Numbered from the stretch's first letter, positions 1,597-31,068 are shown. The stretch is DNA of 32,000 nt from Candidatus Saccharimonadota bacterium (GCA_016699955.1 CP064993.1:1140001-1172000), one strand, 5' to 3'. A program made the numbers and translations. The notes: generated from the sequence alone by a model not told the origin.

Positions 1597-1854
1597 ACGT
1601 GCCCTAATTTTACCACAACACCGCAAAGGTGGCGTATTTTAGTCTCGAATACCCGCATATTGCGGTGATTACCTGGCGTTTTTACTGATACTCACCTTGC
1701 TCATATCAACATGTCGCGGAGTATACAGTGATGTGATTTTTTTCAAATTGCCTAAAACATACCATCTATACAGTGTGATTATATTGGCTGGGGCTAGTGG
1801 ATGTATTCCAGGAAAACCGACAATTCCACATCACGGGTGTGGTCTCACTAGAGA

Positions 1855-4067: not shown

Positions 4068-4139
4068 AGGCTTGATTGTAGTACAGACGCTAGCCATTTG
4101 CTAATATAAAGTAAGTATCAGTTTTAGAGAGGAGAGAAA

Positions 4140-5192
4140 ATGTCAGAATCCGTCAGGACGTGGGGTTTAATTGGACAAGGAAACATTGGCCGTGAGCTCG
4201 AACGCCAGATTGGACAACCGCATGTGGCAAAAAGACTCGGCCTGCAACCGCGACCGGCAATGATTGTAGAAGCAAACGGCATAATGGACGCCGACGGCGT
4301 GCTCAACCCTTCCCTAGTGTTTGCAGACGCGGATTTACCAGATGTGCTTTTTTTGGCCATACCCTCTGGAGGTGATGGCAAACTAGCCCATGGCTACACA
4401 TCGACCATACTGCAAAAAGGCAAGCTTGCCGTGACTGCCGAAAAAGCAGCCCTCTCACATTTCTTCTCAGATCTCAAAATCGCCTCAGACAACTTCAGCC
4501 GATTTGGCATCACCGCAAGCGTGGGTGGCGGTACGCGTATGCTTCGACTCGCCGAACAGTACAACATAGACCAGGCAAATATTACCGAAATGCATGCCGT
4601 TCTCAACGGTACACTCACTGCCATAATGAGTGAGGTTGCGCCTGTAGCTGGCACGCCGTTGCCACTTGAGGAAGCCGTTTCTAACGCCGTCGCTGCAGGG
4701 TTCGCAGAACCGGGCGCCGACTCACCGCAAGCGGTGCTCCGCGGTGAGGCTGAGGGAGATATTCCAAAAAAAATGTCCATCATTTATAACTTCTTGAAAC
4801 TTGGCGAGAGTGTAATCAGCTCAGACGATCTTGCGTTTTCCCTTTCCGACGAAGATATCAACGCCGCTGTTTCCGCTACTGAGCCTCACCGCTTCATCGT
4901 TTCATTCTACCCAGTAGCGAACGCTCCGCAAAAAGTTGAGCGTTTCGGCGGTTTTGAAAAGGTCATCGATAGTTGGAAATTGGTCGCTGGTTTTCGCGCA
5001 CTCAGTGACAACCCGCTTTTTGCTAGTTTTGCACCACTCAGCGCAGCTGGAAACGGTCTGGTGATTGGTCTTGGCCCAAACCTCAGCGACGGTATATACA
5101 CAGTGACCGGTCCAGGCGCGGGAGTACAACCAACTGTAAATGCCATGATAGATGACTATGTTCGACTCAGCCGCGCTGGAGCCGACCAATGA
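4140..5192 (+). CDS. hom: homoserine dehydrogenase
   Basis: 350 aa. GLIGQGNIG NAD-binding site. SVGGG, LNGT and AEP..D..G motifs of the Hom catalytic domain. SD GAGAGGAGA upstream. ATGA overlap with the next gene. Confidence 0.8.
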   Translation: MSESVRTWGLIGQGNIGRELERQIGQPHVAKRLGLQPRPAMIVEANGIMDADGVLNPSLVFADADLPDVLFLAIPSGGDGKLAHGYTSTILQKGKLAVTAEKAALSHFFSDLKIASDNFSRFGITASVGGGTRMLRLAEQYNIDQANITEMHAVLNGTLTAIMSEVAPVAGTPLPLEEAVSNAVAAGFAEPGADSPQAVLRGEAEGDIPKKMSIIYNFLKLGESVISSDDLAFSLSDEDINAAVSATEPHRFIVSFYPVANAPQKVERFGGFEKVIDSWKLVAGFRALSDNPLFASFAPLSAAGNGLVIGLGPNLSDGIYTVTGPGAGVQPTVNAMIDDYVRLSRAGADQ

Positions 5193-6604
5193 TCGTGATG
5201 AAGTTTGGCGGTACTTCTGTGGGGAGTGCTGAACGTATTCGAGAAGTGGCAAAACTAGTCGCTCGGTACCGGGATCGCCATCCCGCCGTTGTTACTTCTG
5301 CAATGACACAAATCACGAATCAGCTTGAAGACATGGCTCGGCTCGCGGTAACAGGTAACCGCAAGCGCGTCATTGCAACAAAACTAGCTGCTCTCAAGGC
5401 CGCACACGATGAAGCTATCACCGGGCTGGAGCTTGAACCATCGGCCGAAGCAGATCTGCGAGAAATTATTAATTCAAAAATCGTCATACTCGGCAACATA
5501 CTAAAAAGCGTGACCGCCCTAGGGGAGCTCACGCCACGCGGACGCGACCTAATACTATCTTTTGGTGAGCGCCTGTCTATTCACTTGGTTGCAGCGGCGC
5601 TTAATAACCAAGGTGTCCCAGCGGTAGCCGTAAACGCGACCGATTTTTTGCTAACAGACGATAACTTCAATGATGCACAGCCTCAACTACTACCATCCAA
5701 AAAGAAAGCGCAGAAGCTGTTGTTGCCTCTTATTGAAGCCGGGACTGTCCCCGTCGTGACGGGTTTTATAGGCGCAACACGCGACGGTGTCACCACCACA
5801 CTTGGGCGGGGTGGTTCCGATTTTTCGGCAACCATCTTAGGCTACTGCTTAGACGCTGAGGAAGTCTGGATCTGGACTGATGTCGATGGCGTCATGACAA
5901 GCGACCCACGCACGGTGCCGGATGCTCGCTCCATAGAACGTATGTCCTACGAAGAAGCCTCCGAACTCTCCTACTTTGGAGCAAAAGTTATCCACCCACG
6001 CACCATGACCCCAACAGCCGAACTCGGCATACCCATTGTTATAAAAAATACCATGAACCCAAGCCACCCGGGCACGCAAATCACGCCAGCTGGCGACCAA
6101 GATACAACTGGCGCCAAAGCCGTTTCACTCATGAAGAACCTAGCCATGATTACCATACAGGGAAAAGGTATGCGTGGCGTCTATGGGACTGCTGCAAGGG
6201 TATTCGACACTCTTGCCGCTGCACGGGTAAACATACTGTTTATATCGCAGGCATCTTCAGAAAACAACATTACGCTCGTCGTTGAAAAATCGGCCGGTAA
6301 AGCTGCGACTCGCGCATTGCGCCAAACATTTGCCACCGAAGTTCGGGCTAAGCGGATAGATTTTGTAGAATACCAGACAGGCGTATCACTGATAGCAGTT
6401 GTTGGTACGGGCATGCGGCACCACATGGGTATGGCAGGACATATTTTTAGTGCACTAGGTCGTGGCGGCGTGAATGTCATTGCCATTGCTCAGGGGTCAT
6501 CCGAGCTAAACATAACCATGGTTGTACGTGATACAGACGACGCCGTAGCCTTGCAGTGTATTCACGATGAGCTGTACGGTAGCCAGAAAGGAGATCACTC
6601 ATGA
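5189..6604 (+). CDS. lysC: aspartate kinase
   Basis: 471 aa. MKFGGTSVGS N-terminus and a TLGRGGSD motif. The C-terminal half has two ACT-like repeats. Start could be ATG 5189 or ATG 5198. ATGA overlap with asd. Confidence 0.9.
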   Translation: MIVMKFGGTSVGSAERIREVAKLVARYRDRHPAVVTSAMTQITNQLEDMARLAVTGNRKRVIATKLAALKAAHDEAITGLELEPSAEADLREIINSKIVILGNILKSVTALGELTPRGRDLILSFGERLSIHLVAAALNNQGVPAVAVNATDFLLTDDNFNDAQPQLLPSKKKAQKLLLPLIEAGTVPVVTGFIGATRDGVTTTLGRGGSDFSATILGYCLDAEEVWIWTDVDGVMTSDPRTVPDARSIERMSYEEASELSYFGAKVIHPRTMTPTAELGIPIVIKNTMNPSHPGTQITPAGDQDTTGAKAVSLMKNLAMITIQGKGMRGVYGTAARVFDTLAAARVNILFISQASSENNITLVVEKSAGKAATRALRQTFATEVRAKRIDFVEYQTGVSLIAVVGTGMRHHMGMAGHIFSALGRGGVNVIAIAQGSSELNITMVVRDTDDAVALQCIHDELYGSQKGDHS

Positions 6605-7689
6605 ATACTTACCGAGCAGCCGTGCTCGGCGCAACCGGTATGGTGGGTCAACGGTTTATTTCCCTACTCGAAAATCACCCGTGGTTCCATGTGACGACCG
6701 TCGCAGCCTCACCACGTTCTGCCGGAAGGACCTACAGCGAAGCCGTCGGCAATCGTTGGGCTATGAGCACTTCTATCCCAACAGAGATTGCCGAGCTGGA
6801 AGTACTTGCAGTTGAAGCCGATATTTTACAAATTACCCAAGCCGTCGATGTCGTTTTTTGCGCACTCGACATGGAAAAAGAAGACATTCGGCGCATAGAG
6901 GTAGCCTACGCAGCAGCAGGAGTGGCGGTCATCTCAAACAACTCCGCCCACCGTTGGACGCATGACGTACCGATGATAATGCCAGAGGTCAATCCCGAGC
7001 ACGCTGCACTGATAGACGCTCAGCGGAAAAACCACGCCTGGTCAACCGGCTTCATTGCCGTTAAGCCAAACTGCTCCATTCAGTCCTATGTAACTGTCTT
7101 AACCGCGCTTAGCTCGTTCCAGCCAGTAGGAGTCGGTGTCACTAGCCTCCAGGCCATTTCCGGTGCTGGCAAGACCTTTGCAACGTGGCCAGATATGGTA
7201 GACAACGTCATTCCCTTCATTGGGGGCGAAGAAGAAAAGTCCGAGAAAGAACCAATGAAAATTTGGGGCTCGTTAACGAAGGATAAGATTGAGCTTGCCA
7301 CAAGCCCGGTGATTAATGCGACATGTATCCGTGTCCCAGTTAGCGATGGCCACATGGCATCAGTTCAAGTAGTTTTCGATGGTTCGCCTACGAAAGAAGA
7401 CATTGTCAAAGCCGTAACAAAGTTTCGCAGTCCCCTGACTGCGCTCGGCCTGCCTTCAGCGCCAAAACAGCTCATCCAGTACTTCGAGGATACTAGCCGA
7501 CCACAAACAAAACTCGACCGCGATTACGAAAACGGCATGGGCGTCAGTATGGGTCGCCTCCGCCAGATTAGCGAGCATGACTGGCAGTTTGTCGCCCTCG
7601 CACACAACACCGTTCGCGGTGCGGCCGGTGGTGCCATCCTCATGGCCGAACTCCTTGCCGCCAAGGGGTATATTGTCAATCGTACCTAG
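6601..7689 (+). CDS. asd: aspartate-semialdehyde dehydrogenase
   Basis: 362 aa. GATGMVGQ Rossmann motif, active-site Cys in KPNCSIQ, and SGAG and HNTVRGAAG motifs. Confidence 0.9.
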   Translation: MNTYRAAVLGATGMVGQRFISLLENHPWFHVTTVAASPRSAGRTYSEAVGNRWAMSTSIPTEIAELEVLAVEADILQITQAVDVVFCALDMEKEDIRRIEVAYAAAGVAVISNNSAHRWTHDVPMIMPEVNPEHAALIDAQRKNHAWSTGFIAVKPNCSIQSYVTVLTALSSFQPVGVGVTSLQAISGAGKTFATWPDMVDNVIPFIGGEEEKSEKEPMKIWGSLTKDKIELATSPVINATCIRVPVSDGHMASVQVVFDGSPTKEDIVKAVTKFRSPLTALGLPSAPKQLIQYFEDTSRPQTKLDRDYENGMGVSMGRLRQISEHDWQFVALAHNTVRGAAGGAILMAELLAAKGYIVNRT

Positions 7690-7690
7690 T

Positions 7691-8065
7691 ATGAAGCAGC
7701 CCGATAACTATTCCGGCATTGTTTTGCGCGGCAACCAATATGGTCGGACGCTGGGGTTCCCTACGGCTAATTTTGACGCTGACATTTTAAAGCATGTCGA
7801 GCAAGAAGGTGTTTACGCCTGCTCCGTTCACCTGGGATCGCAGTTTTACAGGGGCGCACTTTACCTGGGGCCAAGAATTGTGCTGCACGAAACAAAACGG
7901 GTTTTGGAAATTCATATCCTAGACTTTAACCAGGATATCTACGGCCAAACGCTCTCATTCCAACTCGGTCGCTTCATCCGACCCCCACTGGATTTTGATG
8001 GTCTGGGCGCCCTCAAGGCACAATTTGCCGCTGACATCGCCGCTGTTAAGCAAGCAACCCAGTAG
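7691..8065 (+). CDS. monofunctional riboflavin kinase (RFK domain only, 124 aa)
   Basis: GFPTAN motif and LEIHILDF..DIYG..L, typical of the RibF C-terminal kinase domain. No FAD-synthetase domain. The ATG is 1 nt after the asd stop. The upstream part of the 7577 ORF overlaps asd and is discounted. Confidence 0.8.
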   Translation: MKQPDNYSGIVLRGNQYGRTLGFPTANFDADILKHVEQEGVYACSVHLGSQFYRGALYLGPRIVLHETKRVLEIHILDFNQDIYGQTLSFQLGRFIRPPLDFDGLGALKAQFAADIAAVKQATQ

Positions 8066-8098
8066 TAACCCGAGCACAGATTAAACGCTGAGTTGTAA

Positions 8099-10307
<2,209 letters not shown>

Positions 10308-10746: not shown

Positions 10747-11883
10747 ATGCTAGTTCCTTTTTCTGCACTAACGGCTCGCGTATACACGGTTGGGGTCAAG
10801 CCAATCCTGTTTCGTCGCAAGCCAGACATTGTCCATGAGCGCATGATAAAAGCTTCCCGTTTTGTTGGCAAAGTTGCCCCTTTACGCTGGCTCACACGCC
10901 TAGTGTATCGGCATGACGACAAGCGACTTAGCCAAAACTTTTACGGCACAACGTTCCCTAACCCCGTTGGTCTTGCTGCTGGGCTTGACAAAAATGCCGA
11001 AATGGTTGCTGTACTCCCTGCAATCGGCTTTGGCTTTGGCACTATTGGTTCGGTAACGCATCAACCTTGCGCAGGCAACCCGCGGCCTTGGTTTTACCGC
11101 CTGCCCAATCACAAATCACTAGTTGTTAATGCAGGCTTAGCAAATGAGGGCGTTGAAAAAATACAAAAGCGTCTCACAAAGTACAAAGCAGCATTGGTCC
11201 GAGGGTTTCCTCTAGTTGTTTCCGTTGCAAAAACAAACATCCCCGAAAATTGCACAGATGACGAGGCAATTGCGGATTATTTGGGTAGTTTGGTCAAGCT
11301 CAAAGATGAACCGCGGGTGGGTATACTGGAAATCAATATTTCCTGTCCCAACGCTTACGGCGGCGAACCATTTACTGATCCAAAGCGGCTAGAAACATTA
11401 CTTAGTGCAGTTGATACACTCAAAATTACAAAGCCAATCTGGGTAAAAATGCCTATAAACCACTCCTGGCCAGATTTCGATGCTCTACTAAAAGTCGTTC
11501 TCAAACACAATATCCAGGGAGTTACCATTGGCAACCTTAGCAAGGAGCGGAGTATAATTCCATCTGAAGAATTGCCGAATGAGGTTAAGGGCAACCTGAG
11601 CGGACTGCCCACTCAAACACTTAGTGACGAGCTGATAGGACAAACCTACCAGTCGTACGGCGACCGACTGACAATCATTGGCGTAGGGGGAATATTTACC
11701 GCCGAAGATGCTTACCGCAAAATTCGACTCGGCGCCAGCCTGGTTGAGCTTATCACCGGCGTTATATACGAGGGGCCACAACTTATCGGCCAGATCAATC
11801 GCCAACTCGCAAATCAGCTTAGCAAAGATGGGTTTTCAAACATTTCTAGCGCAATTGGGTCTGCTCACAGGCAAAACATTTAA
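10747..11883 (+). CDS. pyrD: dihydroorotate dehydrogenase (quinone-type, class 2)
   Basis: 378 aa. Motifs: GLAAGLDKNAE; LEINISCPN; GVGGI. TATACT + 7 nt precedes the ATG. Confidence 0.9.
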   Translation: MLVPFSALTARVYTVGVKPILFRRKPDIVHERMIKASRFVGKVAPLRWLTRLVYRHDDKRLSQNFYGTTFPNPVGLAAGLDKNAEMVAVLPAIGFGFGTIGSVTHQPCAGNPRPWFYRLPNHKSLVVNAGLANEGVEKIQKRLTKYKAALVRGFPLVVSVAKTNIPENCTDDEAIADYLGSLVKLKDEPRVGILEINISCPNAYGGEPFTDPKRLETLLSAVDTLKITKPIWVKMPINHSWPDFDALLKVVLKHNIQGVTIGNLSKERSIIPSEELPNEVKGNLSGLPTQTLSDELIGQTYQSYGDRLTIIGVGGIFTAEDAYRKIRLGASLVELITGVIYEGPQLIGQINRQLANQLSKDGFSNISSAIGSAHRQNI

Positions 11884-11886
11884 CAA

Positions 11887-11917
11887 AATAAAAAGCCTCG
11901 ATTACCGAGGCTTTTTA
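11887..11917. terminator. bidirectional intrinsic terminator
   Basis: AAAGCCTCG attac CGAGGCTTT stem flanked by an A-run (left) and a T-run (right). It lies between convergent pyrD and a small minus-strand ORF. Confidence 0.75.
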
Positions 11918-11957
11918 CACTTGCAGAAAGACGTTCATCATACACATTCCTCGCGCC

Positions 11958-12092
11958 CTACAGCGCAAGACCTGCAATACGATGAGCCCTGCGACGACGC
12001 TGCCACTTGTCTTCAAAACGTCGTATGACGGCTTGAAGCTCGGCCTCGCTACGCGGGTGCAAGTTAAAGGTTTGTTTAAATATGGTATTCAT
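11958..12092 (-). CDS. hypothetical small basic protein (44 aa)
   Basis: MNTIFKQTFNLHPRSEAELQAVIRRFEDKWQRRRRAHRIAGLAL. SD GGGAGG 8 nt upstream of ATG 12092. No family recognised. Confidence 0.35.
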   Translation of the reverse strand: MNTIFKQTFNLHPRSEAELQAVIRRFEDKWQRRRRAHRIAGLAL

Positions 12093-12301
12093 ACGCATTC
12101 CCTCCCGTATGACATTTTTATCATACGGCAGGCTGCGATAATCTGCTGTAACGTAATTCACACATATGGTGTGATAAAAGCCACAGTAACGCTACAGATT
12201 GCTGACGGTATTACTGGACAAGCACAAACCTGCACTTAATCCAGAGCAATCCAGGGGGTGTTTTAGGTCACTGTTATTTGAAGGCTAAGTACTTGTAGCG
12301 T

Positions 12302-12517
12302 TTACGCTTTGCCGCCTTTGCGGCCCGCTTCTCGCGCGCGCTCGGGGTTGTTCTTGAAATTGCCGGGGCTTATACTGCCACCAGCTTTACCCGCAAGCGA
12401 TGCGCGCTCGGGGTTGTTCTTGAAATTGCCAGAACTCAGTTTGCCGCCCTTACGACCAGCTCTAGCATGGCCTTCGGAGTCTCCGTGCCAACCCTTACCT
12501 GATTGTTCTTTTGCCAT
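12302..12517 (-). CDS. KGG-repeat general stress protein (YciG-like)
   Basis: 71 aa. Repeated G(N)FKNNPERA...AG.KGG units. Confidence 0.8.
   Translation of the reverse strand: MAKEQSGKGWHGDSEGHARAGRKGGKLSSGNFKNNPERASLAGKAGGSISPGNFKNNPERAREAGRKGGKA
12336..12430. repeat. two 29-nt identical coding repeats (period 66 nt) inside the KGG gene
   Basis: gcgcgctcggggttgttcttgaaattgcc at 12336-12364 and 12402-12430. Both encode GNFKNNPERA. Confidence 0.9.
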
Positions 12518-12585
12518 ACAAAACCCCCGCGCTATTCTGCTATAGCCAACTTACACCCTCGGAGCAGAAATTGCTATAAGATATC

Positions 12586-21442: not shown

Positions 21443-23929
21443 CTACTTCAGGACGAAGCTGACCAGTTTTTTGGGGACATAGATGGTTTTGATAATTGCT
21501 TTACCCTCTAGATGTGCCGCTACTTTTTCGTCCCGCTTGGCAGTTTCTACGATGTCAGCTTCACTTGATTCGTTTCCGACGTCGATAGTTCCACGCAGTT
21601 TACCATTTACCTGGATAGCTATTGTCATCGTGTCCGTCACTAAGTACTGCTCGTCGCACAGCGGCCAGCTATCCTGCTGCACTGAGGATTCCCTACCTAG
21701 GTCGTGCCACAGCTCATCGGCGATATGCGGCGCAAAGGGCGCCACCAGGGCAACGAGACTCTCGAGCGCAAACTGCCAGGCGGCACGGTCGGCAAAATTA
21801 TCTTTGGTTTTCAATGCATAGAGTGTATTGGTAGCTTCCATCATGGCGGCGATGGCAGTGTTATAGCGCTGCGACTCAAGATCGGCTGTTACCTTTTGGA
21901 TTGCTGCATGAATCGCCCGCAAAACCGCCGGATTTTGTACTGGAGTATTGGCGACTGACTCTCGGCTCGTTGAGGGCATGCAGAATTCTTGCACCAGATT
22001 GAACACGCGGTTTAAAAACCGGTACGTACCTGGTACACCCTGCGGATCCCAGCGCATCCAAAGGTCGAGCGGGGCCGCAAACATCAGGTAGGTGCGCAAC
22101 GCATCGGCGCCGTAGCCTTGGGCAATAATCTCAAGCGGGTCGACACCATTTCCCTTGCTTTTACTAAACATTGTGCCATCACTAGCGGTAACTTTGCCGT
22201 TGAACAAGAACCTTTTGAATGGTTCAGGGCTATCAACAAGCCCAAGCTTATGGAAAAAGCGGGTTATGAACCGCGCGTATATCATGTGCGCCGTGGCGTG
22301 ATCGCCTCCATTGTAAAAATCTATCGGCATCCATTTGTTGGCAATGGCACTATCGAATATTGCGTCCTTGTTTGCTCCGTCGAAATAGCGCAGGTAGTAC
22401 CAACTGCTGCAAATGTAGGTGTCAAGGGTGTCTGTTTCGCGCTCGGCTGGACCGCCACACTGTGGGCAGTCGACTTTTAGCCAATCTTCGGCCCTCGCCA
22501 AGGCAGAGCGGCCATCACCACTCGGCGCAAAATCGTCGAGCTCTGGCAGTATCACTGGCAAGTTTTCGTCGAGTACAATTCCGTCTTTTGGACAGTGAAT
22601 GATGGGGATTGGCGCTCCCCAGTAGCGCTGCCTACTGACGCTCCAATCACGAATTTTATACTGTGTAACAGGCTCTCCTGAATTTTTAGCTACAAGTGCG
22701 TCAAGCATAGCTTGTCGGCCCTTTTCAAAATCCATGCCATCGAATTCTCCTGAGTTGGAAACGATATACTCTTTACGGTGCGGCTTAATGCATTCGCTAT
22801 AAGATACAAACTCTTGCTGCTCGGTAGTAAATATAATCGGTAGACCAAATTTTTTTGCAAATTCATTGTCTCGTTCATCTTCACCAGGTACGCCCATAAC
22901 TGCACCCGTCCCGTATCCCATCAGGACATAATCAGCAGTCCATATCGGAATTTTGGCGCCGTTAAGCGGATTGATCGCAAAAAGGCCCTCTATCGGAACG
23001 CCACTCTTCGTTTTATCAGCCATGCGCTCTAGCTCACTTTTGCGCATAACAGCAGCAGTATACTCTTCAATATCAACCGCATTTTCTGCAAGTTGACCGT
23101 AGCGCGAAACCAACGCATGCTCTGGAGCAAGCACCATAAAAGTTGTCCCAAAAATCGTATCATGAGCGGTAGTAAATACCTCTACGAATTCATCAACCGC
23201 ACCAAGGCCTTCGACTTTAAAACGAACATTGGCTCCTTCGCTTTTACCAATCCAGTTTTTTTGAGCAGTTTTGACCACTTCTGACCAATCGAGCGCATCG
23301 GTCGCTTCTAGCAATTCGTCCGCGTATTCGGTAATCTTGAAAAACCATTGTTTGACTTCTTTTTTTTGTACTTCGGGGTCATCGGCAGCATCGTGACGCC
23401 AGCATTTGCCGTCTAACACCTGCTCGTTTGCGAGCACTGTCTGACACTTTGTGCACCACCACTGCATGCGAGCATCTTGGTAGGCCAGACCGTGTTTGTA
23501 CATCTGCACAAAAATCCACTGAGTCCAGCGGTAATATTCTGGTAAATGGGTAGATATTTCTTTTGACCAATCGTTACTCCAACCCATGGCTTTGTACTGG
23601 GTGTGGTAGCTGGGAATGATTTTTGCCATGCTTTCCTGCGGAGACACACCGGCTTTAATAGCATAATTTTCTGCTGGCAAGCCAAACGCATCCCAACCCA
23701 CTGGATGATAACTCTCGTAACCTTGTTGGCGTTTGTAACGAGCCATGACATCTGAGATTGTGTAGTTCATCGCATGGCCAATATGAATACCTGCACCGCT
23801 CGGGTAGTTAAACATACTCATGGCGATATATTTTGGTTTATCAGAATTCAGATTGGCTTTATAGACCTGCTGTCTGTCCCACTCTGCTTGCCACTTTGGT
23901 TCTATTTCCTTAGGGTTATAGCGTTTCAT
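21443..23929 (-). CDS. leuS: leucyl-tRNA synthetase
   Basis: 828 aa. HIGH-type motif (IHIGH), a KMSKS-type motif (MFSKSKGN), CP1 and Zn-like CxxC segments. Confidence 0.95.
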   Translation of the reverse strand: MKRYNPKEIEPKWQAEWDRQQVYKANLNSDKPKYIAMSMFNYPSGAGIHIGHAMNYTISDVMARYKRQQGYESYHPVGWDAFGLPAENYAIKAGVSPQESMAKIIPSYHTQYKAMGWSNDWSKEISTHLPEYYRWTQWIFVQMYKHGLAYQDARMQWWCTKCQTVLANEQVLDGKCWRHDAADDPEVQKKEVKQWFFKITEYADELLEATDALDWSEVVKTAQKNWIGKSEGANVRFKVEGLGAVDEFVEVFTTAHDTIFGTTFMVLAPEHALVSRYGQLAENAVDIEEYTAAVMRKSELERMADKTKSGVPIEGLFAINPLNGAKIPIWTADYVLMGYGTGAVMGVPGEDERDNEFAKKFGLPIIFTTEQQEFVSYSECIKPHRKEYIVSNSGEFDGMDFEKGRQAMLDALVAKNSGEPVTQYKIRDWSVSRQRYWGAPIPIIHCPKDGIVLDENLPVILPELDDFAPSGDGRSALARAEDWLKVDCPQCGGPAERETDTLDTYICSSWYYLRYFDGANKDAIFDSAIANKWMPIDFYNGGDHATAHMIYARFITRFFHKLGLVDSPEPFKRFLFNGKVTASDGTMFSKSKGNGVDPLEIIAQGYGADALRTYLMFAAPLDLWMRWDPQGVPGTYRFLNRVFNLVQEFCMPSTSRESVANTPVQNPAVLRAIHAAIQKVTADLESQRYNTAIAAMMEATNTLYALKTKDNFADRAAWQFALESLVALVAPFAPHIADELWHDLGRESSVQQDSWPLCDEQYLVTDTMTIAIQVNGKLRGTIDVGNESSEADIVETAKRDEKVAAHLEGKAIIKTIYVPKKLVSFVLK

Positions 23930-23959: not shown

Positions 23960-25141
23960 TTAGAACTGCTTGAGAAAATTCGTGGTGAAAGTGGTGGTGA
24001 GTTTGGCGCGCTGCGCATGACGCTCTAGAGCGTAGGCAGTGAGTTTTTCGACTAAAGCTACCCTGGAAATACCTGCTTGAGCCCAGTTGTGCGCGTACAA
24101 ACTACCGGGAAGCGGATTTACCTCGTTAAAGTATACTTTTTTTGCCTTGGTATCGATCAGCAAATCTACGCGGGCAATGCCCGTGCAGCCCAGCGTGCGA
24201 TAGACGTCAAGCGCCAGCTTCACGGCTTTTTCAGACAGCTCTTTTGGAAGATCCGCTGGAATGCGGCTGTAGCCCTGGGCTCCTTTTGAACCCATTTTTT
24301 TACCGCCGCTTCTCATGCTTTTACCACTCTTTTTACCGCCGTTTAGGTACTTTGTTTCAAAGTCAAAGAAGTCTTCGGCGTGAAGGAGCGGCTGCTCAAG
24401 CAGTGCAGGTTCAGGGTTGTCATTGCCCATAACAGGTAGAGTGACCTCAACCAAGTTGTGCACGGCCTCTTCGACGATAATTTTGTCGTCGTAGTGGGCG
24501 GCAATCTCTAGGCCGTTCTGTAGCTCCGTCATATTTTCTACTCGGCTAATACCGATGCTTGAACCCAAATGAGCCGGCTTTACGAAAAGGGGATATCGCA
24601 ACCCAGCACACTGCCGAATGGCTGCTTTACTATCTTGACCAAGCATTTGGCTATGAAACCAAACTCCCTTTGTAACTGGCAAACCTTCAGCGTACACAAG
24701 CTGTTTGGCAAGTACTTTATCCATAGCTACTGCCGCAGCAGCAACACCACAACCAACGTATGGAACGCCGGCCATTTCAAACACGCCCATGAGCTCGCCG
24801 TCTTCGCCGTGCGTACCATGCATAGCCGGAAATGCTATATCCACGGGAATAGTTTTGCGTCCCCCCAAACGAGTTGGAACTAGCAGTTTCATCCCATTGC
24901 CCAAAATCACCCCTGTTGGCTTCACCTGGGCCAGAACATCTTTTAGGTCGTTGCTCCTGTAGAGTGCAACGTTTTTTAGTTTTTCATGCACATACCACTG
25001 ACCGTCCTTGGCAATGTAAACCGGTACAACACGGTATTTTTTAGTGAGTTCGAGCGGGTTGATAATAGACGTAAGCGCCGTGACGATTGATACATCGTGC
25101 TCAGCGGATTGTCCTCCAAAAAATACTGCTACTGTTTGCAT
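23960..25141 (-). CDS. ddl: D-alanine--D-alanine ligase with a Gly/Lys-rich insertion
   Basis: MQTVAVFFGGQSAEHDVS..., then an ATP-grasp region and EVNPLPG. Start at ATG 25141, preceded by TATACT + 6 nt. The ORF track starts at 25183. Confidence 0.9.
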   Translation of the reverse strand: MQTVAVFFGGQSAEHDVSIVTALTSIINPLELTKKYRVVPVYIAKDGQWYVHEKLKNVALYRSNDLKDVLAQVKPTGVILGNGMKLLVPTRLGGRKTIPVDIAFPAMHGTHGEDGELMGVFEMAGVPYVGCGVAAAAVAMDKVLAKQLVYAEGLPVTKGVWFHSQMLGQDSKAAIRQCAGLRYPLFVKPAHLGSSIGISRVENMTELQNGLEIAAHYDDKIIVEEAVHNLVEVTLPVMGNDNPEPALLEQPLLHAEDFFDFETKYLNGGKKSGKSMRSGGKKMGSKGAQGYSRIPADLPKELSEKAVKLALDVYRTLGCTGIARVDLLIDTKAKKVYFNEVNPLPGSLYAHNWAQAGISRVALVEKLTAYALERHAQRAKLTTTFTTNFLKQF

Positions 25142-25272
25142 GTCAGTAGTATACAGCGAAGAGCTAAGAGTGCATAACCCCAACTCGGCGTAAGTGCCGA
25201 GGTATTGAAGGGGCGAACGGGCGTATCGGCGAGCTTCAGGCAGAGTGGAGGGACATTTTAGGACCGTATGAG

Positions 25273-26724
25273 TCAGTGGTAGTTATCAGTCCAATCGTTT
25301 TGCATGAGTACAACGTCACCCGTCGCAACAAAGTTCGATAGGTTAGTGTAAAATTCGAGCGGGTTATCTTGGACGAGAAGCTCGCCTTTGTAGTCAGTAT
25401 CATCGAGTCCCGCCTGTATGTCTGCGGTAACAGAATTGCGCATAAGCACTACTACATCTGGTTGGGCGGCAGCGATCAGACGACCAACTTGACGGTGAAT
25501 ATCGGCGGTTTCTTTTCCTTGGTCAACTAGACCTGGCGTTATATACATCTTACGCTTCGCCTTTAGCCCCGCCAGCAGCTCAGTCCCTGCGCGAATTCCT
25601 TCGAGGTTGCCGTTGTAGGTATCGTCTATAACCCAGGCTCCAGAAAGCTTATATGGTTGCATACGGTGTTCAAACGGCGTCGTTTTGCCAACACCAGTTT
25701 TGACTTCTTTTTCACTTAGCCCGCACGTTAGCCCAAAAGCGGCGGCAAACGCAAGCGGGCCAACCTGGTGAAGCCCGACTAGGCCGCTATGAAACTTCAG
25801 ATGCTTTTTTTCTTTTACCAGCTCAAATGAGGTTCCGTCCAGTCCTGTCCGAGCCTTGTCCACTCTCCAGCCGAGCACATTGCTACGAGAATAGGTTTGG
25901 TATTTCGGTTTTATAAAACCAAGCATCGCGTCAGATTCGGCATTGACGTACATGTTGTCAGGCGAGACGTAACGCGATAGTGAAAAGATGTCTTTTCCAG
26001 CGGCTTGCAGCGTCTTGTATTGGTCTAGGTGAGCTGGCGCCAAACCAGTAATGACTGCCTGTGTCGGCCGCACCATGGCACTAAACTGCGCCACATCGCC
26101 CGGCTTACCTTCGCCAAACTCCACGAGTACAACGTCTTCCTTGCCTGTGAGAGTTTGAGCAAAAAGTAAGTGAGAGCTAACAACATTCATATTTGCCGGC
26201 GTGGCCGCAACCGCAAGACCTTCACTAAGCACTGTTTGGAGCAGCTCTTTCATGCTGGTTTTTCCGTAGCTTCCGGCTATGGCAATACGATTTCCAGGGT
26301 GTTTTTGGAACAATTCAGCCGCCTGGATAGCCTGCCTGTTTTCGCGTGGTTCCGTAATTATGATGCGACCAAGCGCCAAAAATAGCGCAAGCATATGCGC
26401 CCAAACGATAGGGTAGGAAACAAGCAGCGCCAACCCATACCATCGTATTTCATCGTATGGTGTATTTTGACTGACATATATGAGCGAAAAGGCCAAAATT
26501 ATTTGGCTGAACATCCCTGATAACAGCCCGAGGCGTAGTAACCGCGCAGCTCTGGTCGGTTCCAGCGAACGACGCTGCATAACCGCCGAAAAATCCTGTA
26601 TCTGCCATAACCATCGCAGAAATGGAAATGATTGGTACTCAGTTGCTTGCGCCATGTAGGTCAAACTACGGCTGATGCGCAGCGGAGCATAAAAATTGTA
26701 CAGATTTCTAAGAACTCTATTCAC
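25273..26724 (-). CDS. MurF-type Mur ligase paralog A with N-terminal PFLRW + 2-TM module
   Basis: P-loop AIAGSYGKTS; ITGLAPAHLD; VIDDTYNGN (MurF-type DD(S/T)YN). The N-terminal ~125 aa has two hydrophobic helices instead of the usual N-domain. The GTG start at 26724 overlaps the upstream stop by 8 nt. Confidence 0.75.
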   Translation of the reverse strand: MNRVLRNLYNFYAPLRISRSLTYMAQATEYQSFPFLRWLWQIQDFSAVMQRRSLEPTRAARLLRLGLLSGMFSQIILAFSLIYVSQNTPYDEIRWYGLALLVSYPIVWAHMLALFLALGRIIITEPRENRQAIQAAELFQKHPGNRIAIAGSYGKTSMKELLQTVLSEGLAVAATPANMNVVSSHLLFAQTLTGKEDVVLVEFGEGKPGDVAQFSAMVRPTQAVITGLAPAHLDQYKTLQAAGKDIFSLSRYVSPDNMYVNAESDAMLGFIKPKYQTYSRSNVLGWRVDKARTGLDGTSFELVKEKKHLKFHSGLVGLHQVGPLAFAAAFGLTCGLSEKEVKTGVGKTTPFEHRMQPYKLSGAWVIDDTYNGNLEGIRAGTELLAGLKAKRKMYITPGLVDQGKETADIHRQVGRLIAAAQPDVVVLMRNSVTADIQAGLDDTDYKGELLVQDNPLEFYTNLSNFVATGDVVLMQNDWTDNYH

Positions 26725-27463
26725 CTAAAAATTCCTCAGTAGCACTGACCACTTCTTCTGGGGCGTCAAGATGAATAAAATGACCTGCTCCGTTTAAGAT
26801 ACGCAGGCTCGAACCATCTATGTCATGATTGAGCTGCTCACCGAGCTTGACCGGTGTTTGCTCGTCGGCAGCGCCATACAATAATAAAGTAGGAGTACTT
26901 ATATATGCTGCGTCGGCTCGAACATCGTCTCGAACTATTTTTTTAAATGTTTCTTGCATGTGCTCTGCGACTAGCAGGTCGGAACCCGCCGTTTCGTACA
27001 GTTTACGACGTAATTTGGACGTGACACGTTTTGGCAGTGGAGCAGTGATTGCCTTCCCAACTTTTGCTATAACTCGGTACGCCGTAGCGCTATTGGAACT
27101 TCGTACACCTGCGCTTGCAAGCAGGACTAACTTTTCGGCCTGAAATAGCCCCCGACCGACCCCGCGTATTGCAATTGCTCCCCCGTTACTATGGCCCATC
27201 ACTGCGTATGGTTTGACTCCAATTTTTTGTAAGAAATCGCGGACAAAGGTAGCGTAGTCGGTTAAGTTCCATGCTTCAGGCGGTGCCTCGGTAAGCCCAA
27301 ATCCTGGCAAATCGGGTACAACAACATCATAGTTTTTTGCAAGCTTGGCAGCAAATGTCTGCCAGCTTGCACTGCTGTCACCCCAACCGTGCAATACAAG
27401 CAATACCCGGCCACTACCGGTACGAGTATAGTCTGTTGCAATGTTTTGAACGATGACCCGCAT
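26717..27463 (-). CDS. alpha/beta-fold hydrolase
   Basis: 248 aa. HGWGDS oxyanion region, GHSNGG nucleophile elbow, and a C-terminal GAGH. Confidence 0.8.
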   Translation of the reverse strand: MRVIVQNIATDYTRTGSGRVLLVLHGWGDSSASWQTFAAKLAKNYDVVVPDLPGFGLTEAPPEAWNLTDYATFVRDFLQKIGVKPYAVMGHSNGGAIAIRGVGRGLFQAEKLVLLASAGVRSSNSATAYRVIAKVGKAITAPLPKRVTSKLRRKLYETAGSDLLVAEHMQETFKKIVRDDVRADAAYISTPTLLLYGAADEQTPVKLGEQLNHDIDGSSLRILNGAGHFIHLDAPEEVVSATEEFLGE

Positions 27464-27489
27464 ACAACTTACAGTGTAGCAGTATTTTG

Positions 27490-29109
27490 TTATTTTGCCT
27501 TGCGACGAAGCCAGTATGAGCTTTGCCGCACTAGCTTGTTGGCGTCGCGCGGATGAGCGAGTAGTTGCTTGACAACCTCTTCGGCAAAGACACCGTTTTG
27601 AGAGCCTTTTACTAGTACAACTGCACCTGTTTTCAGGTGCTTGCGCACAAAGGCGGCACAGGCAGTCTGGCTAGAAAAACTGTGCACAACACAGCCGTTT
27701 TTACGCGCCGATGGAGCTAACCAGCGCTGAGAATCACTGCCGAGTGTCAGAACAAAATCAAGCTTGTTTGGTTCACAGTAGCTACCGACTTCGGTATGTG
27801 CTTCTTTTGAGTACGCACCTAGCTCGTTCATACTACCAAGTACAGCAATCCGCTGAGTTGCACGCGACCCATATACTACGTCTAAAGCCGCTTTTACGGC
27901 TATTGGTGATGAATTATATGTATCATCTATAAGCTTACTGTTTTTTATACCGTCCAGCACTTGAATACGTCCAGCAGATGGTTCAAGCTCCTTTATGGCT
28001 TCGGCTATGCTAGCGTGTTTCAGGCCCAACATATCCGCCACCGCAGCTGCGGCAAGCACGCTTGATGCGCCCTGCTGCCCGACAAGCTTTGTATGCGCAT
28101 CTATAACCCCGGACGGAGTCTGTATCTGTAAAAACTGACCTCCCAAGTTAACTCGGCTCGACTCTGCGTAGTACCCGTGCGCTGAACCTTTGCGTAAACT
28201 GTAGGTAGTGGACGAGCGGCCAACCAGTAACTTCGGCGCTACAGCGTCAGCATTGACCAGCACGAAGCCACTGTAGTCAAATACCTTGGTTTCTTCTGCC
28301 GCAACCGCCTCGAGCGTACCAAAATATGCCATATGTTCTGGAGCAACTGCCGTCAAGACAGTAATATCCGGCCGGGTGTAGGCAAAACGCTGCATCTGGC
28401 CGGGTTTATCAGTACCAAGTTCGATTACTACCACGTCGTACGGGTAGGGGTGGTGGAGGCTTGCGGCAATTTCACCGAATACGCGCATCCAGGCAAAGGG
28501 ATTCAATAAAGGCGGCTCCTCTTGACCAAAAAAGATAAGTGGTACGGTAACTCGGTCATTGTAATTACCTGACTGGTATTGCACGCGCACATTCTGGCCG
28601 AGTAGTTGGGCGGTTGCCAGCTTTGTACTAGTTTTGCCTACTGAACCAGCGACGGCTACAACTGTAAATCGATGTTTTTGGCGAAGTCGTATGACCTGAC
28701 TTTCCAATATGTTTGCAACAATTGCTTTCCCGAGTAGTTTTGGATGAATGACGTAGTACAAGCTTCGTATCACAACGGCACATATGACAAAAAGTGTCAC
28801 GAGCAGGAGCGGCCCTCCAATAATTATCGCCAGACCAAACGCCCACGATCCCACCGTTCCCTGGGTAACCCATTTCCATAGCAACGCACCACCCGCAGCA
28901 TAGGTTGCCAGCAGCACACTTTGCATTAATCTTAGAAGCGACTTATCTGTTTGTAGCTGGTTTGGATGGGCTACGCGAAACGTTTTTGTTCGTCCAAACC
29001 AGCGTAAAAATGGTAACAATTGCTCATTATGCACGCGCCATGCCGCTAATACATTTGCTGGAAAATGTAGCGCGTAAAAACGCTGAACCGCCCACCAGGT
29101 TTTCTTCAT
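27490..29109 (-). CDS. MurF-type Mur ligase paralog B with N-terminal PFLRW + 2-TM module
   Basis: P-loop VAGSVGKTS; LTAVAPEHM; LIDDTYNSSP. The N-terminus is homologous to paralog A (FYA, PFLRW, LLRL, two TM helices). Start at MKKTWW (29109); the longer ORF would run through a terminator hairpin. Confidence 0.75.
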   Translation of the reverse strand: MKKTWWAVQRFYALHFPANVLAAWRVHNEQLLPFLRWFGRTKTFRVAHPNQLQTDKSLLRLMQSVLLATYAAGGALLWKWVTQGTVGSWAFGLAIIIGGPLLLVTLFVICAVVIRSLYYVIHPKLLGKAIVANILESQVIRLRQKHRFTVVAVAGSVGKTSTKLATAQLLGQNVRVQYQSGNYNDRVTVPLIFFGQEEPPLLNPFAWMRVFGEIAASLHHPYPYDVVVIELGTDKPGQMQRFAYTRPDITVLTAVAPEHMAYFGTLEAVAAEETKVFDYSGFVLVNADAVAPKLLVGRSSTTYSLRKGSAHGYYAESSRVNLGGQFLQIQTPSGVIDAHTKLVGQQGASSVLAAAAVADMLGLKHASIAEAIKELEPSAGRIQVLDGIKNSKLIDDTYNSSPIAVKAALDVVYGSRATQRIAVLGSMNELGAYSKEAHTEVGSYCEPNKLDFVLTLGSDSQRWLAPSARKNGCVVHSFSSQTACAAFVRKHLKTGAVVLVKGSQNGVFAEEVVKQLLAHPRDANKLVRQSSYWLRRKAK

Positions 29110-29121
29110 GATTCTATTTTT

Positions 29122-29162
29122 GCACAAAATGCCCCTCGTGTCACGAAACACGGGGGCATTTT
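29122..29162 (-). terminator. intrinsic terminator after the 500-aa membrane protein gene
   Basis: ATGCCCC(C)GTGT ttcgtg ACACG(A)GGGGCAT is a 12-bp stem, followed by TTTTGTG on the minus strand. Confidence 0.7.
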
Positions 29163-29187: not shown

Positions 29188-30690
29188 CTACAGGCTGTTC
29201 GTTGAGTCAGTGAATGCGCCAAGGACGCTGTCGCCGCTAAATCCAAGTTGATTCATGACTGTAGTTATTGGAGTCGATCCGGCGGGCATCTCTACGGTAA
29301 GGTCATCCTTGCTTGGAGTAAAAGTAAATTTGCCAGTTATTGTTGCCGTGCTACCCTCCGAACCCACTTCTACGTTCACATCAAAGTTGGTTATATCCGT
29401 TTTGGTATCTACAGACATACCGAGGTCAAATGATCCTGTTTGACCAGAGGTATCGGTAGTAAATTTGATCCCAACAGGATAGACTGAACCCTCCGTGTAA
29501 TTCTGGTAAATAGTGAGTCTGGTTTTGTCATCATCTGGATCAGAGAAAACCAAGCTATGTATTAGTTTAGTCTGTTCGTCGACGTACACGTCAAATACGT
29601 AGTCGTCTTTTGCATCGTCAATGCTTTTCTCGAGCTCCTTAAGCTGCATGGACTGACTGAAGCTTTCGTCTGACTGGTTTTTGTACCAGTCGTTGAGTTT
29701 ACTTTCGTCAAGAGCTTTTCCAACCGCCTTAACATACGCCTTCATATTGGTCTTGCTGTAAGTTGCCTTGTACTGCATGACGTCCCGGCCATCTGCAGTT
29801 GATTTACCTTCAAAGCTTTTGTACTGTACGACGCCCTTTGTACTATTGTCTGTAAAGAGATATTCCTTGTTGACGACCTGAACCTTTGCCAATGCATCCT
29901 GCATCTGTTCTGTTGTTGGATTTGTTTTCAGGCTTGCTCCCGCCGCTTGGCTTGCCACTGAGTCAAGCAACGTGTGGTCGATAGCAATCCATTTGTCCTC
30001 GACTGTCGCTGCCTGCGATGGTTGCGCACCGAGGCCTTGTAGCATATCTGCTGCGCCGTCAAGCTTGATATACATGTCCGGATTATCTGAACCCTCGGCG
30101 TCTATCATGCGAAAATCTGCCTTCAGCTTCTGACCAACGATATTTGCATCCATGGTTAGATCGGCTTCCTTATCGCTCATATTTCCCTTTGTTGTAATAT
30201 CGAAGCTCACATCAGGCGACTTTACATTGATGGTGCCGTTTACTACAAAGCTCGGTGATGGCGATTTTGCTTCTTCTTGGACGTACTCTATGAGCTTATC
30301 GAGTGCCTTCCCGCTTTGTGTTAAGCTCTTACTAAAGACTGCTTCTGGCTTATTTGGCAGATACAGACCAAAGACATACCCAGCTGCAAGCAACACCGTA
30401 AGTGCGCCACCAGCCAAGGCAGGAATCAGCCACTTTTTCTTTCTTCCAGGGCCACCTGAACCACCGGGAGATGCCGTGAATACTGGGCTTTGTTGCACAC
30501 CACCTCCAACAACAGGGCTACCTGAGACGACAGGCGTAGTAACCTGTGGCGTAGACATGACTTCAGGTGCAGATTGTGTTGGCGCCGAAGGCTGTTCTGG
30601 AGCGAAATTATCCACTGTGGGCGGAACAGACCCCGTGGGGGCAGGGCCGTCCGTCGGATTGGTTGATTGAGAAGGGTTTGTTGGCTCCAT
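29188..30690 (-). CDS. hypothetical membrane-anchored protein (Pro/Thr/Ser-rich N-terminus, one TM helix, large C-terminal domain)
   Basis: 500 aa. About 85 aa of P/T/S/G-rich sequence, then RKKKWLIPALAGGALTVLLAAGYVFGLYL, then a ~390-aa domain with no recognisable motif. Confidence 0.65.
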   Translation of the reverse strand: MEPTNPSQSTNPTDGPAPTGSVPPTVDNFAPEQPSAPTQSAPEVMSTPQVTTPVVSGSPVVGGGVQQSPVFTASPGGSGGPGRKKKWLIPALAGGALTVLLAAGYVFGLYLPNKPEAVFSKSLTQSGKALDKLIEYVQEEAKSPSPSFVVNGTINVKSPDVSFDITTKGNMSDKEADLTMDANIVGQKLKADFRMIDAEGSDNPDMYIKLDGAADMLQGLGAQPSQAATVEDKWIAIDHTLLDSVASQAAGASLKTNPTTEQMQDALAKVQVVNKEYLFTDNSTKGVVQYKSFEGKSTADGRDVMQYKATYSKTNMKAYVKAVGKALDESKLNDWYKNQSDESFSQSMQLKELEKSIDDAKDDYVFDVYVDEQTKLIHSLVFSDPDDDKTRLTIYQNYTEGSVYPVGIKFTTDTSGQTGSFDLGMSVDTKTDITNFDVNVEVGSEGSTATITGKFTFTPSKDDLTVEMPAGSTPITTVMNQLGFSGDSVLGAFTDSTNSL

Positions 30691-30947: not shown

Positions 30948-31024
30948 GGGGCTGTAGCTCAGTTGGCTAGAGCGCTTCCATGGCATGGAAGAGGTCCAGG
31001 GTTCGAGTCCCTGTAGCTCCACCA
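30948..31024 (+). tRNA. tRNA-Ala (anticodon GGC), CCA encoded
   Basis: GGGGCTG TA GCTC AGTTGGCTA GAGC G CTTCC ATGGCAT GGAAG AGGTC CAGGG TTCGAGT CCCTG TAGCTCC A CCA. The G3:U70 identity pair is present. Confidence 0.9.
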
Positions 31025-31034
31025 CGCTGTCCAA

Positions 31035-31068
31035 TAAAAAAATGCCCCGATACTTTTCGGGGCATTTT
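31035..31068. terminator. bidirectional intrinsic terminator
   Basis: ATGCCCCGA tacttt TCGGGGCAT is a 9-bp stem flanked by an A-run and a T-run. It lies between tRNA-Ala (+) and a small minus-strand gene. Confidence 0.75.

Follow-up and report, generated by a model that had tools for sequence, protein, structure and literature searches.

Organization of the locus

A 32,000-nucleotide stretch of the genome of Candidatus Saccharimonadota bacterium (GCA_016699955.1, CP064993.1:1140001-1172000), referred to in its entirety as the window, contains two genes for Mur-ligase-family proteins related to MurF, here designated ligA and ligB, together with an alpha/beta-fold hydrolase gene (hyd) and ddl, which encodes a D-alanine--D-alanine ligase. 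Both ligases lack the N-domain of MurF, which binds uridine diphosphate-N-acetylmuramic acid (UDP-MurNAc), and begin instead with a shared module predicted to form a membrane hairpin. Although adjacent in the window, ligA and hyd-ligB-ddl are two separate units, and the window displays a minority state in which both are present. A probable role of both ligases in the D-Ala-D-Ala branch of peptidoglycan precursor synthesis is weighed below against several alternatives.

Open reading frame (ORF) calling placed six genes in one direction on the minus strand, encoding a 500-aa membrane protein, ligA, the hydrolase, ligB, ddl and leuS (Table 1). The ORFs of ligA, the hydrolase and ligB were recovered on the minus strand, exactly where the original prediction had placed them. 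Successive intergenic distances from ligA through hyd, ligB and ddl to leuS are 26 nt, -8 nt, ~130 nt and 30 nt. The negative value corresponds to the GTG start of ligB overlapping the hydrolase stop, an arrangement that had been read as translational coupling and that recurs in similar form in related loci (see below); ddl follows ligB directly, as had also been proposed. Synteny identifies the 500-aa membrane protein as the conserved 5' neighbor of ligA and, in loci without ligA, of hyd.

The start positions of two genes required consideration. The ddl ORF remains open further 5', up to a TTG at 25183, and the ligA reading frame is open to a GTG at 29151. A 553-aa ligA initiated at this GTG was rejected, and the 539-aa form accepted, because the GTG lies inside a terminator-like hairpin after the upstream stop and because homologs begin at ATG, as the accepted form does. 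The hairpin likely marks the 5' boundary of the co-directional ligA-hyd-ligB-ddl-leuS block. A scan for promoter and terminator consensus sequences yielded nothing above shuffled expectation, and this hairpin was absent from its list.

MurF-type ligases without the N-domain

Mur_ligase_M (PF08245) and Mur_ligase_C (PF02875) are the only Pfam domains present in ligA and ligB, with scores of 73.4 and 59.1 bits in ligA and of 71.9 and 32.3 bits in ligB, respectively (cutoffs 24 and 28.4). With both domains above their gathering scores and P-loops that read GSVGKTS in ligA and GSYGKTS in ligB, both proteins belong to the Mur ligase superfamily; APxH and DDTYN also occur in both. The top NCBIfam model for both is murF TIGR01143 (216.2 bits for ligA, 163.7 bits for ligB), with a wide lead over MurD, MurE and MurC. 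Family profiles matched Escherichia coli MurF (1gg4) with E-values of 2.6e-39 for ligA and 8.6e-33 for ligB, and the alignments of both ligases to TIGR01143 and to PDB entries begin at approximately residue 94 of E. coli MurF, past the N-domain. Structures were predicted with AlphaFold2 from alignments of 57 and 54 sequences; their predicted local distance difference test (pLDDT) scores were 92.5 for ligA and 92.3 for ligB, and MurF structures occupied the top 9-10 Foldseek matches of both models (E-values of 1e-24 to 1e-18). Both models also contain two long N-terminal helices.

The description of the pair as MurF-type proteins without a MurF N-domain, made originally from the sequence of the window, is thus upheld: by sequence family as well as by fold, MurF ranks first for each of them, and the matches begin only after the N-domain. 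In the absence of the UDP-MurNAc-binding N-domain, both fall outside the three-domain architecture of MurF. No curated family in the NCBIfam scan covers either protein, and the names found in annotation are MurF, "Mur ligase family protein" or hypothetical protein.

Placement by hidden Markov models relative to MurE, MurF, MurT and CapB, which had been suggested as a check, was likewise best with MurF for both ligases. MurT identity was rejected: NF052464, whose cutoff is 800 bits, gave ligA 14.8 bits (E = 0.009) and did not match ligB, and DUF1727 was absent. CapB/PgsB identity was rejected as well, no such model appearing among the Pfam and NCBIfam matches at E <= 0.01 for either ligase, and NCBIfam scores ruled out MurE, FolC and cyanophycin synthetase.

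The invariant catalytic residues of Mur synthetases are Lys, Glu, His, Asn, Asn, Arg and Asp. Both families keep the Lys of the P-loop, the Glu that binds Mg, the APxH His, the Arg and the DDxYN Asp; the two Asn are considered below. Among the signature motifs of MurF, ligA retains GNYNDRVTVP (GNxNDxxxxP) and GSMNELG (GxMxELG), and in ligB TPANxNVxSSH replaces GNxNNxxGxP and PGLVDQG replaces GDMxELG. The C-terminus of ligB, QNDWTDNY, is invariant across its family. The two ligases can be aligned over their full length, including the N-terminal module, with 24% identity (E = 2e-26), and in a rough neighbor-joining tree they are reciprocally monophyletic.

The N-terminal two-helix module

The first ~125 residues are homologous between ligA and ligB and follow a common pattern, in which LY...P..LV and YLxWFWxTxxF are followed by a first hydrophobic helix, a 10-residue loop and a second helix containing FGLALLxSYPxVWAH. 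The FYA/LY and PFLRW/YLxWFW motifs are conserved in ~120 homologs per family. Both hydrophobic segments have a family-mean Kyte-Doolittle value of 2.0-2.25 over 19 residues (~118 homologs per family), and the count of Lys plus Arg falls from 8.7 ahead of the hairpin to 0.4-0.7 within the 10-residue loop and rises again to ~4.5 beyond it, in agreement with the positive-inside rule. In the AlphaFold2 models, three short helices precede two long ones of 29-50 residues (residues 55-83 and 88-121 in ligA). With two conserved hydrophobic segments of ~20 residues or more and a positive-inside bias, both modules have the properties of helical-hairpin membrane proteins. The module is predicted from these features to insert as an N-in/C-in hairpin, which would leave the ATP-dependent domains in the cytoplasm. 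A shared two-helix module of ~125 residues, homologous between the paralogs and with conserved hydrophobic segments, had been proposed from the window and is borne out here across both families.

Searches with the module returned no match to any Pfam or NCBIfam family, nor to any PDB chain even at E <= 10, and no alignment to the normal MurF N-domain was found, so the module is not a diverged form of that domain. When a module profile was compared with 1.84 billion representative proteins (clusters), only 152 matches were obtained. The module is confined to the ligA and ligB families, since all 152 matches are N-terminal and the full-length carriers among them are all 464-583 aa long, which is the length of the ligases. 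Every match with a taxonomic label belongs to Saccharibacteria or unclassified Patescibacteria; a spread of the architecture through ordinary bacteria, which would have told against the original prediction, is not seen.

Table 1. Features of the ligA and hyd-ligB-ddl locus, with positions counted from the first letter of the window.
Feature	Position	Strand	Basis
Upstream neighbor, 500 aa, membrane-anchored, no Pfam family	29188..30690	-	ORF, Pfam, synteny
Terminator-like GC-rich hairpin, then ATTTTGTG, in the gap between the upstream gene and ligA	29131..29157	-	Read directly from sequence
ligA, MurF-type ligase, 539 aa	27490..29109	-	ORF, Pfam, TIGR01143, 1gg4 match, AlphaFold2/Foldseek, leuS synteny
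ligA N-terminal module, aa 1-128	28726..29109	-	Hydropathy, conservation, ligB alignment, charges, AlphaFold2
ligA predicted transmembrane helix 1, ~aa 57-80	28870-28941	-	Hydropathy, AlphaFold2
ligA predicted transmembrane helix 2, ~aa 91-113	28771-28839	-	Hydropathy, AlphaFold2
hyd, alpha/beta-fold serine hydrolase, 248 aa	26717..27463	-	Pfam, triad, synteny, overlap with ligB
ligB, divergent MurF-type paralog, 483 aa, GTG start	25273..26724	-	ORF, Pfam, TIGR01143, 1gg4 alignment, AlphaFold2
ligB N-terminal module, aa 1-124	26353..26724	-	Hydropathy, ligA alignment, charges, AlphaFold2
ligB predicted transmembrane helix 1, ~aa 61-84	26473-26544	-	Hydropathy, AlphaFold2
ligB predicted transmembrane helix 2, ~aa 96-118	26371-26439	-	Hydropathy, AlphaFold2
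ddl, long DdlA-type, 393 aa from ATG	23960..25141	-	NF002528, PDB match, synteny
leuS, 828 aa, conserved downstream anchor	21443..23929	-	ORF, synteny

Distribution and gene order of two separate units

GTDB species genomes were scanned with a ligB profile, which identified at least 577 loci, and the best 80 were examined; neighbors were counted at the 66 ligB loci with enough flank. The distribution of ligA was derived from a metagenome scan with a ligA profile, in which 44 loci had enough flank. The best 80 ligB loci lie in records labelled Saccharibacteria/Saccharimonadales, Patescibacteria group or unclassified bacterium, and all taxonomically named homologs of ligA and ligB are Saccharibacteria or Saccharimonadales.

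The order hyd-ligB-ddl is near-invariant, with the hydrolase upstream of ligB in ~78 of the 80 GTDB loci and its stop overlapping the ligB start (by -4 or -8 nt) in 62 of 67. Directly upstream of this cassette, ligA is found in just 11 of 66 ligB loci, and at 40 of the 55 loci without it leuS lies downstream. Viewed from ligA, leuS is the downstream gene in 40 of 44 loci, hyd-ligB-ddl follows ligA in six, and the other 38 are without ligB. These counts do not support the original prediction in two respects. The ligase-hydrolase-ligase arrangement had been taken as one conserved unit, whereas the conserved block is hyd-ligB-ddl, and ligA, rather than being part of a single operon-like unit, is tied independently to leuS.

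The loci share a backbone of membrane protein(s), X, leuS, nusB, nudix, rnc, rpsP, KH and trmD, in which X takes four forms: ligA; ligA with a short DdlB-type ddl; ligA with hyd-ligB and a long ddl, as in the window; and hyd-ligB with a long ddl. The long Ddl was seen only with ligB, and the short DdlB-type with ligA. Since leuS is present at loci of either kind, and since in cassette-only loci exactly the slot of ligA is empty, many genomes appear to hold just one of the two ligases, and ligA would be absent from the cassette-only genomes; both statements derive from synteny at the level of the locus.

The side-by-side position of the two paralogs in the window might suggest that ligB is a copy of ligA, either redundant or in decay, and that the hydrolase is an unrelated neighbor. 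This explanation is contradicted by the conservation data and is scarcely credible: ligB occurs in at least 577 species-level genomes, stands without ligA at most related loci, has many family-specific invariant residues and is under purifying selection similar to that on ligA (mean column identity 67% for ligB and 65% for ligA), and the overlapping hydrolase is conserved to the same degree as ligB.

Two kinds of variation were observed around these units. A class IV (D-amino-acid or branched-chain) aminotransferase-like gene, which may supply D-amino acids, lies just upstream of the cassette in seven GTDB loci (for example, L056 at 4127-4951, minus strand). In many relatives (L015, L027, L030, L032, L039, L069 and others), matches to leucyl-tRNA synthetase (LeuRS) fall into two to three pieces, 400-500 nt apart, which indicates variable insertions in leuS; the LeuRS of the window is uninterrupted. 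A 924-aa LeuRS (L082, 16772-19546) has a weak ASCH match.

ligA as a probable Saccharibacterial housekeeping MurF

Of the ligA orthologs linked to leuS, about half have their start at a position equivalent to approximately residue 124, with in-frame stops just upstream, and possess neither the membrane module nor a MurF N-domain. In a rough neighbor-joining tree, these short forms occupy basal positions within the ligA clade and also occur scattered among the long forms. The membrane module is always carried by ligB. At one locus (L164, ~5200-8377), an open, Gly/Asn-rich N-terminal extension of ~570 aa precedes a ligA-like core in place of the module; a fusion may account for it, or an artefact of assembly or annotation.

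A comparison is provided by Southlakia epibionticum ML1, a Saccharibacterium available in culture, whose sole MurF, SEML1_0599, comprises 426 aa and is essential according to transposon sequencing (Wang et al., Cell 2023, PMC10633639 supplement). In SEML1_0599, the Pfam M domain starts at residue 29 with no N-domain, and the gene is located two genes from leuS and nusB; MurE of the same organism (403 aa, M domain from residue 22) also lacks the N-domain, MurC and MurD retain theirs, and a separate MurT/GatD pair is encoded by overlapping genes (PMC10633639). The annotation includes no Ddl, hydrolase-ligB cassette or alanine racemase, although MurF is essential (PMC10633639). Judged by its position and size, SEML1_0599 is probably orthologous to ligA. 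Since the N-domain is absent both from the short ligA orthologs and from S. epibionticum MurF, its loss is a clade-wide trait in Saccharibacteria.

Sequence and synteny together suggest that ligA is the Saccharibacterial housekeeping MurF, with predicted MurF activity. The view of ligA as an exotic enzyme had to be abandoned: it is the ordinary MurF ortholog of its lineage, about half of its orthologs are unanchored, and its syntenic counterpart in S. epibionticum is essential. As about half of the orthologs are without it, the module is not required for ligA catalysis and is therefore best read as a tether; in ligA, it looks like an optional one and not a determinant of the substrate.

The hydrolase and Ddl

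In the hydrolase, the nucleophile is Ser92 within GHSNGG, and Ser92, Asp200 and His228 are invariant in 115 homologs. Scores of 91 bits with PF12697 (Abhydrolase_6) and 84.7 bits with PF00561 (Abhydrolase_1), together with this triad, identify it as a serine hydrolase. No specific NCBIfam subfamily reached its cutoff, and the NCBIfam and PDB matches were generic only. Rosetta-stone support was likewise lacking, as no hydrolase-ligase fusion occurs among the 120 closest hydrolase homologs. One hydrolase homolog bears a Verrucomicrobiae label. The hydrolase is cytoplasmic, catalytically intact as judged by its triad and translationally coupled to ligB, with which it most likely acts.

The ddl product scores 310 bits with NF002528 (cutoff 262), every Van model remaining far below its own cutoff, and its best PDB match is DdlA (3i12, E = 1.4e-57). 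It retains the omega-loop Lys-Tyr (ETKY), the mark of D-Ala-D-Ala ligases rather than of D-Ala-D-Lac or D-Ala-D-Ser ligases, and has the features of a DdlA-type D-alanine--D-alanine ligase. A Gly/Lys-rich insertion of ~17-20 aa (KKSGKSMRSGGKKMGSKGAQGYS; 24269-24340, minus strand) follows ETKY and is absent from solved DdlA structures, and the PGFTxxSMY motif has a four-residue deletion.

These properties bear on the idea that hyd-ligB-ddl is a Van-like module, in which stem peptides would be given a different terminal dipeptide or depsipeptide, with ligB adapted to that product, and the hydrolase would remove the normal dipeptide or the terminal residue; a consequence would be intrinsic glycopeptide tolerance for epibionts living on Actinobacteria. 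The combination of a MurF paralog having changed substrate motifs with a dedicated, distinct type of Ddl would fit such a module, and so would the unusual omega-loop insertion and the presence of both a short Ddl and a cassette Ddl in some genomes (L088); some van clusters are reported to contain murF paralogs. The retained Lys-Tyr and the family scores of the cassette Ddl nevertheless place it with the D-Ala-D-Ala ligases, no VanH-, VanX-, VanY- or VanT-like gene or two-component regulator is present in the loci, and in many genomes the cassette is apparently the only MurF/Ddl set, which leaves this idea a slim chance.

Other features of the window

The plus strand of the window encodes a homoserine dehydrogenase-like protein, an aspartokinase and an aspartate-semialdehyde dehydrogenase (4140-7689, 8111-9829 and 10747-11883), an aspartate branch that could supply diaminopimelate or lysine for the stem peptide. 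Genes for pgi and dihydroorotate dehydrogenase are also present, and this biosynthetic capacity is above that usual for genomes of the Candidate Phyla Radiation (CPR). A strong 12-bp terminator-like hairpin at 31039-31068 (minus strand) overlaps and lies just past the 3' end of a tRNA-Ala gene (30948-31024, plus strand). Near the left end, a gene for a Fic/DOC-domain protein (556-1626, minus strand) is located close to a tRNA-Gln gene (2178-2251).

Proposed function in the D-Ala-D-Ala branch

We favor, with a probability of roughly 0.6, the reading that both ligases add Ddl-made D-Ala-D-Ala onto the stem peptide at the membrane's inner face, with ligA as the standard enzyme and the cassette as a self-contained replacement. 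The locus would accordingly encode a lineage-specific version, composed of two units, of the D-Ala-D-Ala branch in the synthesis of peptidoglycan precursors. In ligA, the module would consist of three short cytoplasmic helices and a transmembrane hairpin that tethers the ATP-dependent core, presumably close to MraY. The separately inherited hyd-ligB-ddl cassette would combine a DdlA-type ligase, an always-tethered divergent MurF-type ligase and a Ser-Asp-His hydrolase. Because genomes carry ligA, the cassette or both at the same leuS-linked position, ligB would likewise be able to perform the essential MurF step, in which the dipeptide is added, with its own Ddl as the source of that dipeptide. 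Addition of D-Ala-D-Ala to UDP-MurNAc-tripeptide by ligA and ligB, the predicted MurF activity, is suggested indirectly by linkage to ddl and by the essential, syntenic MurF of S. epibionticum.

Several observations weigh against this reading. Both ligases score below the curated TIGR01143 cutoff of 288.6 bits, and both Asn residues of GRHNIAN (GxHNxxN) in E. coli MurF are replaced in ligA and ligB, the aligned positions reading G-x-Q-G-A and G-x-H-Q-V-G-P, respectively. In ligB, moreover, changes affect two signature motifs of MurF that lie close to the acceptor site and to the site of the incoming substrate, so that the same chemistry is not assured. The strict coupling of hyd and ligB is left without explanation, and no MurF is known to need a hydrolase partner; nor is binding of the UDP moiety by a MurF without an N-domain accounted for. 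With respect to gene content, a ligA-like gene lies downstream of ddl in L080, and L088 contains two ddl genes within 5 kb, one of the short DdlB-type (325 aa, 6630-7607) and one of the long DdlA-type belonging to the cassette (383 aa, 11425-12576). Cassette-only genomes might hold ligA or another MurF elsewhere.

In a rival reading, ligB, and possibly ligA, being membrane-embedded and without the UDP-binding N-domain, would act on undecaprenyl-pyrophosphate-linked lipid I or lipid II bearing an incomplete or unmodified stem peptide, instead of on UDP-MurNAc-tripeptide. In such a scheme, ligB and the hydrolase would form a pair resembling MurT-GatD, with the Mur-like subunit activating a carboxylate of the stem peptide and the nucleophile coming from, or being processed by, the coupled hydrolase. 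MurT, to our knowledge the only Mur-family enzyme that acts on lipid II, is, like both ligases, without the N-domain, and its gene adjoins that of its partner, the two overlapping in S. epibionticum. The conserved translational coupling of hyd and ligB, the altered substrate motifs of ligB and the fact that its membrane module is never lost are consistent with this scheme, as is the presence of N-domains in MurC and MurD and not in MurE and MurF of S. epibionticum. However, the short ligA orthologs and S. epibionticum MurE and MurF have neither an N-domain nor an anchor, and membrane embedding is therefore not linked to the loss of that domain. Resemblance to MurT is negligible in ligA and absent in ligB, DUF1727 is missing, and the hydrolase is of a generic alpha/beta type instead of being an amidotransferase; close linkage to a Ddl that has kept the omega-loop Tyr points to an ordinary dipeptide substrate. 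On balance, action on a lipid-linked substrate is unlikely, and the fuller version, in which the late stem-peptide steps take place on membrane-bound, lipid-linked intermediates instead of on UDP-MurNAc-peptides and ligB with the hydrolase constitutes a new MurT/GatD-type machine for completing or modifying stem peptides carried by lipid I/II, is improbable.

Comparison with known systems and significance

MurF, a target of antibiotics, is regarded as being soluble, cytoplasmic and built of three domains wherever it occurs. ligA and ligB resemble canonical MurF (E. coli, 1GG4) in the central ATPase and C-terminal domains, in the P-loop, Glu, His, Arg and DDxYN, and in their adjacency to ddl. 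They differ in that the UDP-binding N-domain is replaced by the two-helix module in all ligB and in approximately half of ligA proteins, and ligB differs further in its obligatory hydrolase neighbor and altered signatures. MurT, the Mur-family component of lipid II isoglutaminyl synthase, shares with them the lack of an N-domain and a gene beside that of a hydrolytic partner, and its own substrate is membrane-bound. Unlike them, MurT is a soluble protein with DUF1727 as its C-terminal domain and a glutamine amidotransferase as its partner, and Saccharibacteria possess a separate MurT/GatD. The poly-gamma-glutamate synthetase PgsB/CapB is a Mur-type amide ligase with an N-terminal membrane anchor; in contrast to ligA and ligB, it has PgsC and PgsA as partners, a different product and no link to ddl.

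MurE-MurF fusions and Mur-MurG scaffolds gather late Mur enzymes or bring them to the membrane, presumably channelling intermediates (PMC10214165, PMC6420597). These assemblies, however, involve full three-domain ligases with no integral anchor in place of the N-domain. No transmembrane, CPR or Saccharibacteria case is mentioned in the first of these reports (PMC10214165), and another analysis left CPR out (PMC8871954). In the literature on MurF of Saccharibacteria and Patescibacteria, on membrane Mur ligases and on the division and cell wall (dcw) cluster of CPR, we found no published description of a membrane-anchored or N-domain-less MurF.

The findings point to a phylum-level lineage of CPR epibionts, the Saccharibacteria, that runs on MurF-type enzymes without the nucleotide-binding domain, fixed to the membrane in many members. 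This raises the question of how a UDP-linked substrate is recognized, or whether the substrate is lipid-linked, and the short and anchored forms of ligA constitute natural enzyme pairs for comparison. Automatic "MurF" labels in Saccharibacteria conceal two separate systems whose distribution alternates. The way in which these ultrasmall bacteria live on their hosts depends centrally on envelope biogenesis, and a lipid-linked substrate, if that reading were true, would mean that the steps of peptidoglycan synthesis follow a different order in a major, uncultivated phylum.

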